A stretch of 64,000 bases of DNA from Escherichia coli (GCF_024502345.1 NZ_JALDNN010000001.1), one strand, 5' to 3'; counted from the first letter of the stretch, positions 30,170 through 55,569 are shown. The notes: generated by a model from the letters alone, not told the origin. A program made the numbers and translations.

Positions 30170-30604
30170 CAGTGTTTCTCCTTTCGCCCGCCAGAGTAAA
30201 AAGCAACCGTTTACGTTAATGAAACTGTCTAAACACATGCTCGTGGAGTGCCAGTTTTTGCGAGGAAGGGGAGTTAGAGACAGGAATTGCGGAGGCAATC
30301 ACATAATCGTGGTTAAACCACGAAAATGAGAAGAGAACCTGACAATGAAATTATCTGTAATTTTCTCATATTGATATTTCATTAATCATTCTGGCATGTC
30401 GCACTCTCGCATTTAATCGTTTTTATCTGGATAGCGCTCTTTTGGTCGGCAATGTTGAAATAATGAAAGCGGCATAGATTGAGGGGCAATAATTTGAACT
30501 CAGTCGCAAAATTATAATTAAAACGGTCATGCTACCTAATATATGCCCGTTTATTGCATCGCGAAATTTGAGAAGACATAACTCATTAAATGAAAGGGAT
30601 GCAA

Positions 30605-45548: not shown

Positions 45549-45573
45549 AGCAACAATCGCACCACTCTTGCCA
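45549..45573 (-). promoter_or_regulatory. candidate sigma-54 (-24/-12) promoter for ygfK
   Basis: Minus-strand read: TGGTGC-gattg-TTGCT (GG-N10-GC spacing), overlapped by TGGCAA-gagtg-GTGCG; about 75-95 nt upstream of the ygfK start. Confidence 0.4.
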
Positions 45574-45797
45574 GGTTTGGCGGGAAATATAAAAAAATGT
45601 GAGGCGGCTCGAAACTTAAGGGCTTTTTGTGAATGAACTCACAGGTGCTAAATGAGAATTAAAATCACTCCTGAAAATTATTATTGCCAGCCCATTTATC
45701 ACTTTTTCTCTTTTCTCAAAATCAGTGATTCCTTATCATTATGATAAAGAGTGCCGGAAGGATTAAATATTTGAACGCAATCGTTTAACTACGTTTT

Positions 45798-53903: not shown

Positions 53904-55094
53904 TTATTTCACGCGTTCTTGCGCTTCTTTCAGCAGTTGCTCGAGCAGTGCACCTGGTTTGGCGTATTTACGGGACAGGATCATCGCGGCGATGATATAA
54001 GGCTTCCAGCTGGCTTCTTTGTAGGTAGCGATACGGTATTTTTCGAATACGCCTTCAGTCACTTCACCTTCTTTGCAGGATACGCCGCTGATATCAGCTG
54101 GCAGGCAGTGCATGTACAGGGCTTCGCCATCACGGGTCAGTTCCATCATCTCTTCAGTACAATGCCAGTCTTTGTGTTGCGCGTTCTGTGCCAGACACTG
54201 TTTTTCCAGTGCTTTTAAGCCTTCGTGGTCGTTCGCACGCAGCAATTCAGTACGCTCTTCCATCACTTTGTAAGGTGCCCATGACTTCGGATAAACGATG
54301 TCTGCATCTTTGAACGCTTCTTCCATGCTGGTGACCTGACGGAAGCTACCGCCAGATGCTTTAGCATTGTTTTTCGCCACTTCAACCACATCCGGGATCA
54401 GGTCGTAGCCTTCCGGATGGGCCAGGGTGACATCCATACCGAAGCGAGTCATCAGACCGATGATGCCTTGTGGTACAGAGAGCGGTTTGCCATAGCTTGG
54501 AGAGTAGGCCCAGGTCATGGCGATTTTTTTACCTTTCAGGTTTTCCAGTGAACCAAAGTGTTCACGTAACCACGCGAGGTCAGCCATTGACTGAGTCGGG
54601 TGGTCAATATCGCATTGCAGGTTCACTAAAGCCGGACGCTGTGGCAGTACACCCTGCTTGTAACCGTCATCAAGTGCAGCGCCAACTTCACGCATATAGG
54701 CGTTGCCTGCGCCCAGATACATATCGTCGCGAATACCAATAGCGTCGGCGCAGAAGGAGATCATATTGGCGGTTTCACGCACGGTTTCGCCGTGAGCGAT
54801 TTGTGATTTGCCTTCGTCGAGATCTTGTTGTGCAAGGCCGAGCAGGTTAAGCGCGGAAGCATAAGAGAAGCGGGTACGGGTGGAGTTGTCGCGGAATACG
54901 GAAATACCTAATCCACTATTAAAGACTTTGGTTGAGATGTTTTCAGCACGCAGTGCTTTTAATGCTGCGGCAACGTCCAGTACTTGTTTCAGTTCATCTG
55001 GCGTCTGTTCCCACGTTAACAAAAAATCTTTCTCGTGAAGGTGAGAGGTCAGCGAATTGATATCCTTAATCAGCTCATTAACAGTTTTCATCAT
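53904..55094 (-). CDS. ygeW: carbamoyltransferase (aspartate/ornithine carbamoyltransferase superfamily)
   Basis: 396 aa; STRTR carbamoyl-phosphate-binding motif (NSTRTRFSY). Confidence 0.9.
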   Translation of the reverse strand: MMKTVNELIKDINSLTSHLHEKDFLLTWEQTPDELKQVLDVAAALKALRAENISTKVFNSGLGISVFRDNSTRTRFSYASALNLLGLAQQDLDEGKSQIAHGETVRETANMISFCADAIGIRDDMYLGAGNAYMREVGAALDDGYKQGVLPQRPALVNLQCDIDHPTQSMADLAWLREHFGSLENLKGKKIAMTWAYSPSYGKPLSVPQGIIGLMTRFGMDVTLAHPEGYDLIPDVVEVAKNNAKASGGSFRQVTSMEEAFKDADIVYPKSWAPYKVMEERTELLRANDHEGLKALEKQCLAQNAQHKDWHCTEEMMELTRDGEALYMHCLPADISGVSCKEGEVTEGVFEKYRIATYKEASWKPYIIAAMILSRKYAKPGALLEQLLKEAQERVK

Positions 55095-55184
55095 AAAGTC
55101 CCGGTAGTGGAATGACAGGCAAAGTGGTTTATTTCACTGTGACTTGCCAAAGTGATTGGTGTTTTCACAGCTATACCTGGGACT

Positions 55185-55200
55185 AACAATAAGTGTGCCA
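55185..55200 (-). promoter_or_regulatory. candidate sigma-54 promoter for the ygeW operon (perfect -24 TGGCAC, weak -12 TTGTT)
   Basis: Minus-strand read: TGGCAC-actta-TTGTT, about 90 nt upstream of ygeW and divergent from the sigma-54 activator gene ygeV. Confidence 0.35.
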
Positions 55201-55569
55201 GAATTATCCGCGCGGCTGCAAAAGACTAATTTGACGGATAATGTGTGGGGTTGATCACAAATTGATGCCAGCTTCTGGTTGTTTGTAAAATACGAAAACG
55301 TTTGGCTTTTTTTATCGCGTTATTTATTTGCTGCTAAGTATCAGAAATAAGATAAAGGGGCAGGCTATCTCTCTTCAGTTTGATAAACTCACCGCCGTAA
55401 TTCTCATATTGATATAGAAATGTGATATCTCTTCCATAATTTCATTAGAAAATGATAAAAATCTTATGTTTTTATCAAAGCCAATTTCGCCTGAGTTAAT
55501 ATCATCATGATCTGTGAACCATCAACGTCTTCAATGATCGACTTTTAAGTAAGTCTGGAAGGTAAAGCT

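Follow-up and report, generated by a model that had tools for sequence, protein, structure and literature searches.

The 475 bp that separate ygeV from ygeW in Escherichia coli quite probably form a divergent control region, in which a sigma-54 promoter for ygeW is combined with dyad sites for the activator YgeV and with a CRP-type site, YgeV being the likely orthologue of the clostridial regulator DioR. The ygeW sigma-54 promoter as such has been in the literature since 2015 and was predicted in 2001 according to PRECISE-1K (PMC10602906), where the sigma-54 promoters of xdhABC and ygeWXY are credited to Reitzer and Schneider 2001. What is new here is the invariant T at its -12 position, the presence of DioR-type dyads at fixed distances from it, and a CRP-type site in the place of IHF.

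The intergenic region and the comparative sample

All positions are those of the window, by which we mean the whole stretch of 64,000 nucleotides that was analysed. The ygeW gene (53904-55094, minus strand), recognized as an open reading frame and in RefSeq, encodes a knotted carbamoyltransferase with the Pfam domains OTCace_N and OTCace, and is the first gene of the run ygeW-dpaL(ygeX)-ygeY-hyuA-arcC(yqeA); a 2025 study (PMC12507026) describes the part that it plays in reductive uric acid degradation. The ygeV open reading frame (55570-57348, plus strand) encodes a sigma-54 enhancer-binding protein, named in RefSeq as a sigma-54 interaction domain protein. RefSeq has the two genes divergent, with dpaL/ygeX, ygeY, hyuA and arcC behind ygeW and xdhCBA behind ygeV. 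The original prediction of a divergent pair around a 475-bp, AT-rich spacer thus agrees with both the open reading frames and the annotation, the spacer (55095-55569) having 37% G+C. The segment 53800-57500 is 99.8% identical to many E. coli strains, and the spacer is present at an identity of at least 95% in 5180 of 5426 complete E. coli genomes. Two divergent strains, L091 and L092, differ in the spacer at 16 and 9 positions, respectively, and 23 of these 25 substitutions lie outside the elements inferred below, which together make up 125 of the 475 spacer bases.

The cross-genus comparison covers E. coli and 11 further genera, represented by Enterobacter sp. Bisph1, Cedecea, Pluralibacter, Serratia silvae, Kluyvera, Intestinirhabdus, Raoultella, Trabulsiella, Atlantibacter, Citrobacter amalonaticus and Pseudocitrobacter. 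A contig search with YgeV was dominated by generic AAA+ matches and gave one true enterobacterial orthologue (L002) together with distant homologues; the 120 clusters listed by the first protein search were all from E. coli, and a query with the L002 protein gave the diverse orthologues that were used. Against the Enterobacter sp. Bisph1 query, which shares 69% identity with E. coli YgeV, the YgeV proteins compared show an identity of 70-87%. The divergent order of ygeV and ygeW-ygeX-ygeY-hyuA-arcC is retained in all 12 genera, in a comparison that has no negative control because every locus was chosen for having ygeV.

The sigma-54 element of ygeW

The promoter element is the 17-mer CTGGCACACTTATTGTT, at 55185..55201 on the minus strand. 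Read from 55201 down to 55185, that strand gives C, TGGCAC (55200-55195), actta and TTGTT, just as the original prediction had it for TGGCAC, five nucleotides and TTGTT at 55185-55200. With G55198 set as -24, the GG at -25/-24 (55199/55198) lies inside a TGGCAC that is unchanged in the 12 genera. The predicted replacement of the -12 GC by GT is also confirmed (G-13 at 55187, T-12 at 55186): the -12 position is T (TTGTT) against the C of the consensus TTGCW, in which the GC follows the GG by exactly 10 bp; that spacing is exact here and the TTG is retained. From the 3' end of the element to the ygeW ATG the distance is 90 nt, and transcription is predicted to start at 55174, giving a leader of 80 nt; the start-site rule of Bonocora et al. 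(19 bp 3' of the motif centre) likewise gives 55174.

By itself the motif is no better than chance. The 64-kb window holds one TGGCAC-N5-TTG where 0.94 would be expected, and matches to the 16-mer with two mismatches stand at background level (47 against 44.6 expected). The ygeW element is the best match in the window, and its placement, in a 475-bp spacer and facing ygeW, is beyond chance: about 0.0035 matches would be expected in this spacer and orientation, by an estimate of 0.94 x 475/64000 x 0.5. Conservation carries the case further. TGGCAC-N5-TTGTT is found on the ygeW strand in 12 of 12 Enterobacterales genera, 79-106 nt before the ygeW ATG, with 14 of 16 positions invariant and the variation confined to two positions of the internal spacer. 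Most of the intergenic region cannot be aligned across the genera (MAFFT), and the sigma-54 block stays invariant within it, including the T at -12, which argues that the non-canonical -12 is being maintained there and shows no sign of decay.

A sigma-54 promoter about 90 nt upstream of ygeW, as originally proposed, is supported by this conservation and by two published binding surveys. In Bonocora et al. 2015 (PMC4591121) the ygeW ChIP-seq site OS30 is the identical 17-mer, with its peak centre at K-12 3004190 and its motif centre at 3004185 on the + strand, assigned to b2870 ygeW at a distance of 80 bp, with a FAT of 3 and a matrix score of 9.837. As OS30 bears no EcoCyc flag, it falls within that paper's eight novel intergenic gene-oriented sites. 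Its score (9.84) lies within the range of those listed there for the EcoCyc-confirmed sites of atoD (9.39) and hydN (9.18) and the EcoCyc-predicted ones of prpB (9.47) and argT (9.46); neighbouring rows are xdhA (OS29, FAT 11), ygfK (OS31, FAT 26) and ygfT (OS32, FAT 3). For OS30 that study deals with sigma-54 occupancy only, and the activator, its sites, CRP and the non-canonical -12 are outside its scope. The genomic SELEX of Shimada et al. 2021 (PMC8743547), done in vitro with RpoN holoenzyme, has a peak in the ygeV/ygeW spacer at K-12 3004270, reaching 53-55% of the maximum.

There is precedent for the unusual -12 among the sites bound in PMC4591121: pspG also has GT there (TTGTA), and hydN has GA in place of GC (GTGAA), although both are more highly occupied in ChIP than ygeW, with FAT values of 15 and 11, respectively, against 3. 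GC at -12 is thus not strictly required, and pspG, bound with TTGTA, shows that sigma-54 can bind a site with GT there. The activators are PspF for pspG and FhlA for hydN, and differ from that of ygeW.

In the literature searched, no study was found that maps the start of ygeW transcription or tests directly whether ygeW depends on rpoN or ygeV. The FAT of only 3 would also suit a poised or decoy sigma-54 site of no importance, with ygeW expressed from a CRP-dependent sigma-70 promoter elsewhere in the spacer. Many sigma-54 sites of E. coli drive no detectable transcription (PMC4591121), a CRP-type site does lie upstream (a Crp site being, in PMC12507026, the only native element named by those who re-engineered the spacer), and E. 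coli has a GATAAT hexamer at 55208-55203. The region of that hexamer is, however, unaligned across genera, and a start driven by it would, by our reckoning, put the CRP centre at about -55.5, a place that is standard for neither class I nor class II. There is no conserved -35/-10 pair; a scan for the sigma-70 consensus gave 2 matches against 1.8 expected, neither of them conserved or usable for ygeW, the sole one on the minus strand overlapping the start codon. Together with the invariance of the sigma-54 positions, and with distances to the CRP-type site and the dyads that stay fixed through 12 genera, this makes a sigma-70 origin of ygeW expression very unlikely.

Dyads as proposed YgeV sites

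The original prediction also supposed that the long spacer would accommodate upstream activator sites, and conserved dyads of the form TATCA-N3-TGATA are indeed present at about -206, -235 and -332. The common 13-mer was found by reading the upstream regions of four sigma-54 sites, those of ygeW, ygfK, ygfT and xdhA; in the literature searched, we found no paper reporting this motif for E. coli. The dyad proposed as the main YgeV site, UAS1 (55402..55414), reads TCTCATATTGATA on the plus strand and TATCAATATGAGA on the ygeW strand and is centred at about -234/-235; a dyad with 0-1 mismatch is found at -234 to -238 in 12 of 12 genera. The second proposed site, UAS2 (55373..55385, TATCAAACTGAAG on the minus, ygeW strand; centre about -205/-206), has a degenerate 3' half in E. 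coli, and corresponds to the conserved alignment block TTTATCAA..TG; a dyad stands at -205 to -209 in 9 of the 12 genera, with a perfect TATCATATTGATA in Cedecea. YgeV as the protein that binds these conserved dyads is proposed from sequence.

Nearer to ygeV there is a third dyad at 55500..55512 (TATCATCATGATC on the plus strand, 1 mismatch), centred at about -332 and 64 nt 5' of the ygeV ATG. It lies within the conserved block GATGATAYTA of the 12-genus alignment, and 5 of 12 genera have a dyad with up to 2 mismatches at -332 to -336. The E. coli dyad may serve for autoregulation, or else be the -10 region of ygeV (TATCAT). Two further stretches are conserved. The block beside UAS1 at 55415..55441 (aaATATGgaag.g.tATCACAttt), with columns nearly invariant in the 12-genus alignment, adds a TATCAC half-site 14 bp from UAS1. 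At 55453..55478, conserved alignment columns hold the half-sites TTGATA ... TTATCA (TGATA-N15-TATCA), which relative to the ygeW start lie at about -279 to -304, some 92-117 nt 5' of the ygeV ATG. They may be additional half-sites for YgeV, or else belong to the ygeV promoter. The spacer has no ygeV-facing sigma-54-like element at 9 or more of 11 consensus positions, so ygeV itself is probably not sigma-54-dependent.

With up to one mismatch, TATCA-N3-TGATA has 7 matches in the 64 kb. The four spacers with a sigma-54 site hold 5 of these, where dinucleotide shuffling predicts 0.096, a count reached in 0 of 2000 shuffles, although the statistic is post hoc and inflated, the dyad having been defined from these same E. 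coli spacers. The independent support for the dyads comes from the other genera and from the DioR data discussed below. A generalized form, T[AC]TCA-N3-TGA[TG]A, is found upstream of the sigma-54 element at each of ygeW, ygfK, ygfT and xdhA. An exact copy of the UAS1 13-mer precedes ygfT (30364-30376), and a copy with 1 mismatch precedes xdhA (61220-61232).

This recurrence bears on the question of whether some factor other than YgeV binds the dyads, or whether they serve only to autoregulate ygeV, in which case ygeW would owe its activation to a different enhancer-binding protein or to sites elsewhere. The TGATA half-site, rich in A and T, is similar to one half of a Fur-box hexamer, and at 64-197 nt from the ygeV ATG the dyads stand nearer to that gene than activator sites of the ygeW promoter typically would, one of them overlapping a possible ygeV -10. 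Dyads are found, however, upstream of the ygfK, ygfT and xdhA sigma-54 sites as well, with no ygeV alongside, and clostridial dyads adjoining the sigma-54 promoters of the same gene families have been assigned to DioR (PMC6615313). Binding by another factor, or a purely autoregulatory use, is therefore highly improbable in our estimation. A Fur-box reading was rejected on the arrangement of the half-sites, which by our analysis is the opposite one (TATCA-N3-TGATA against TGATAAT-N-ATTATCA for Fur).

The CRP-type site and the absence of an exact IHF match

IHF normally bends sigma-54 promoters at a position between the activator sites and the promoter, and room for an IHF bend had been suggested for this spacer. 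That suggestion is not supported in any of the 12 species: a search for exact matches to the IHF consensus WATCAANNNNTTR, which would pass over a degenerate site, found none between the dyads and the promoter in the 12 spacers, and a CRP-type site was found there instead. This site, TGTGATCAACCCCACA (55244..55259), matches TGTGA-N6-TCACA with 1 mismatch and is centred at -77.5. A CRP core with 0-2 mismatches is present at -77.5/-78.5 in 12 of 12 genera, and binding of cAMP-CRP is predicted; across genera the conserved block takes the form GTGA-N6-(T/C)C(A/G)CA. Five CRP-core matches with up to one mismatch occur in the 64-kb window, those of ygeW and ygfK among them.

According to a 2025 paper in Life Metabolism (PMC12507026), the "native Crp-binding site" of the spacer gave way to an engineered promoter cassette, glucose represses urate degradation, and replacement of the spacer relieves the repression. 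A CRP-type site at -77.5 fits the reported glucose repression, and we propose, from this together with the conservation of the site and the lack of an exact IHF match, that cAMP-CRP has an architectural role at ygeW. This is the least certain part of the model.

The element at -77.5 might instead be a promoter-proximal YgeV site, or belong to another regulator, with bending achieved in a different way. In several genera it is degenerate (CGTGA-N6-TCGCA, 2 mismatches to the CRP core), an ATCACA is found beside UAS1 too, and the statement about the Crp site in PMC12507026 comes without coordinates in the text available. Against this, the core is perfect or has 1 mismatch in 7 of the 12 genera, being perfect in Pseudocitrobacter; a perfect and conserved core occupies the equivalent place at ygfK, 20 bp farther out; and the glucose repression of the pathway is lifted on spacer replacement. 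We regard a non-CRP identity for the element as unlikely, and continue to treat it as a CRP-type site.

The ygfK, xdhA and ygfT promoters and a candidate at uacT

The ygfK promoter repeats the ygeW layout most fully. Its sigma-54 site GTGGTGCGATTGTTGCT (45549..45565, minus strand) is OS31 of Bonocora et al. (PMC4591121), and its dyad at 45734-45746 (TATCATTATGATA on the plus strand, TATCATAATGATA on the minus) is a perfect palindrome centred at -202. A perfect CRP core, TGTGAATGAACTCACA (45628-45643), is centred at -97.5, and a core at -97.5/-98.5 is found in most genera, placing it two helical turns farther out than that of ygeW. A perfect dyad lies upstream of ygfK in 12 of 12 loci, its centre 181-204 nt 5' of the predicted start in the 10 loci with enough sequence, and the conserved sigma-54 element is TGGTG[CT]GA[AT]TGTTGCT.

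Two other promoters combine a dyad with a sigma-54 element. At xdhA the sigma-54 site CTGGCGTAAATCTTGCC (61106..61122, minus strand; OS29 in PMC4591121) has the dyad ACTCATATTGATA (minus strand) at 61220-61232, centred at -131, and a second dyad at 61241-61253 (-152). At ygfT the site TATGCCCGTTTATTGCA (30542..30558, plus strand; OS32 in PMC4591121) has as its dyad the plus-strand copy of the UAS1 13-mer noted above, centred at -199. No CRP-core match with up to one mismatch was found at ygfT or xdhA.

The spacer between uacT and ygfT holds two further items. A candidate sigma-54 element, TGGCACTCCACGAGCA (30238-30253, minus strand), with a perfect -24 and GC at -12, faces uacT/ygfU (ATG at about 30169); it was not found among the rows of Table 1 of PMC4591121 that were available. 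Some 143 nt separate it from the ygfT dyad, which may thus serve both divergent genes, uacT and ygfT. A perfect 8-1-8 palindrome, TCGTGGTTAAACCACGA, is present at 30307-30323.

In Kluyvera, Intestinirhabdus and Raoultella a gene for a 549-aa MFS transporter lies directly 3' of ygeV and is preceded by TATCACTCTGAGA (L084 11813-11981, L085 11794-12170 and L086 11837-11849), and in Kluyvera and Intestinirhabdus by TGGCAC-N5-TTGCC as well. It is likely an extra member of the regulon, absent from this place in E. coli, where xdhCBA follows ygeV.

YgeV and clostridial DioR

YgeV has the hallmarks that had been claimed for a sigma-54 enhancer-binding protein: a Walker A motif (GESGTGKE), GAFTGA and a C-terminal Fis-type HTH. 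Pfam places Sigma54_activat at residues 272-439 and the HTH at 548-587, and finds a PAS segment and no receiver domain; the protein also has an N-terminal sensor region and resembles ligand-sensing activators such as PrpR. Its first 160 or so residues, which include the cysteine cluster CEGCDSKENC, match no Pfam family. A 2022 paper in mBio calls YgeV an orphan response regulator, though Pfam shows no receiver domain, and renames the gene isrR for its indole-induced transcription and its effects on LEE genes, direct targets not being identified. That link to indole and LEE, rather than to purines, counts against a purine-regulon model. On the other side, the YgeV iModulon of PRECISE-1K (PMC10602906) comprises xdhABC, ygeWXY, hyuA, ygfK, ssnA, ygfT and uacT; a prior study cited there reported ygfT expression to be lower in a ygeV mutant, and ygeV is needed for uric acid use according to Iwadate and Kato 2019, as reported in a citing paper.

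The nearest described system is that of DioR. From comparative genomics only, and with E. coli outside the analysis, Nie et al. 2019 (PMC6615313) assigned to this clostridial regulator dpaL, ygeW-ygfK-ssnA-ygeY, yqeC-ygfJ-yqeB-xdhC, xdhABC and pbuX; like YgeV, DioR is a sigma-54 enhancer-binding protein, and the genes placed under it are the same ones. The DioR sites (among them ATTTATCATAATGATAAGG, TATTATCATTTTGATAATA and AATTCTCGTATTGATAAAA, from supplementary file 1 of that paper) have the form TTATCA-N3-TGATAA, with TCTCA/TGAGA variants, and lie about 110-240 bp 5' of the sigma-54 element; the TCTCA/TGAGA variant is common to the DioR sites and E. coli. The C. botulinum site ATTTATCATAATGATAAGG and the E. 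coli ygfK site cTTTATCATAATGATAAGG match at 18 of 19 positions. In contrast to ygeW, the clostridial promoters have the canonical TTGCT at -12, the operons are organised differently, and no CRP exists in Clostridia.

In ygeV-like loci of Clostridium and Sedimentibacter, exact dyads adjoin sigma-54 promoters, and one such promoter is TGGCACACTTATTGCT, its spacer the same as in E. coli. The homologues encoded there are 36-39% identical to YgeV over residues 8-590, and YgeV has its HTH recognition helix, LGIGIATLYRKI, in common with the Clostridium homologue, without any difference. The shared dyad and the identical recognition helix make YgeV the likely enterobacterial orthologue of DioR, and the dyads its likely sites.

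A model for the control of ygeW

The part of the spacer nearest ygeW would thus be the sigma-54 promoter, with -24 TGGCAC and -12 TTGT, of the uricolytic operon ygeW-dpaL-ygeY-hyuA-arcC. Sigma-54 holoenzyme binds there as a closed complex, at low occupancy, as the literature shows. YgeV would bind the dyads at about -206 and -235 together with the third one, which at about -332 covers the promoter or leader of ygeV, then reach the ygeW promoter by DNA looping and open the complex through its GAFTGA-bearing AAA+ domain. The bend usually due to IHF would probably be supplied by cAMP-CRP at the -77.5 site, which would tie ygeW expression to the absence of glucose. At ygfK the same order recurs, with a dyad about 200 bp 5', a CRP core and a sigma-54 element, and ygfT and xdhA have a dyad and a sigma-54 element. 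Several findings count against this model: the T rather than C at -12, the low ChIP occupancy (FAT 3 against 11 at xdhA and 26 at ygfK) and the unusual distance of the main dyads from the promoter.

A close parallel is the prpR-prpBCDE system of E. coli and Salmonella, in which a receiver-less, ligand-sensing enhancer-binding protein is likewise encoded divergently from the sigma-54 catabolic operon that it activates, and cAMP-CRP-dependent catabolite repression is a further likeness. Unlike what is proposed for ygeW, prpBCDE uses IHF, and the sequence of the activator sites and the ligand sensed are different.

We also put forward, as a possibility that falls somewhat short of probable, that the whole module of YgeV/DioR, TATCA-N3-TGATA sites and sigma-54 promoters moved between phyla as a unit and was then rewired, CRP sites (-77.5 at ygeW, -97.5 at ygfK) coming to stand where IHF normally bends, and that the weak -12 GT was selected and did not arise by decay. 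Clostridia and Enterobacterales have this module in common, to the point of almost identical sites. If the reading holds, the weak -12 would keep the occupancy by closed complexes low, and firing would need cAMP-CRP as well as YgeV with its ligand bound.

Together with its neighbours, the ygeW operon encodes the anaerobic reductive degradation of uric acid, by which gut bacteria lower host urate; the pathway bears on gout, and its engineering in E. coli Nissle is under way. So far the engineers have swapped the spacer for constitutive promoters. A precise map of the native switch, with the sigma-54 promoter, the CRP-type site and the sites probably bound by YgeV marked on it, would permit rational tuning and offer a direct means of looking for the ligand of YgeV.

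The ygeW leader

An Rfam scan of 54900-55700 with E-values up to 1 gave no match, so the 80-nt leader is unlikely to contain a riboswitch or leader RNA of a known family. The gene begins with two tandem ATG codons (55091-55096): the first (396 aa) gives the longest open reading frame and is also the one used in the 80-bp distance of Bonocora et al., and the second (395 aa) is the RefSeq annotation in strain 2014C-3061. The leader contains a direct repeat, AACCACTTTG and AATCACTTTG on the ygeW strand (55120-55129 and 55148-55157, spaced 28 nt), which is restricted to E. coli and near relatives. Across the predicted ygeW start, the alignment (spacers of L002 and L081-L086) has the palindrome CAGCGCTG in 6 of the 12 genera, with one position different in 3 more and a degenerate version, TAGCTGTG, in E. 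coli; it could be an operator or reflect a preference in the initial transcribed sequence.
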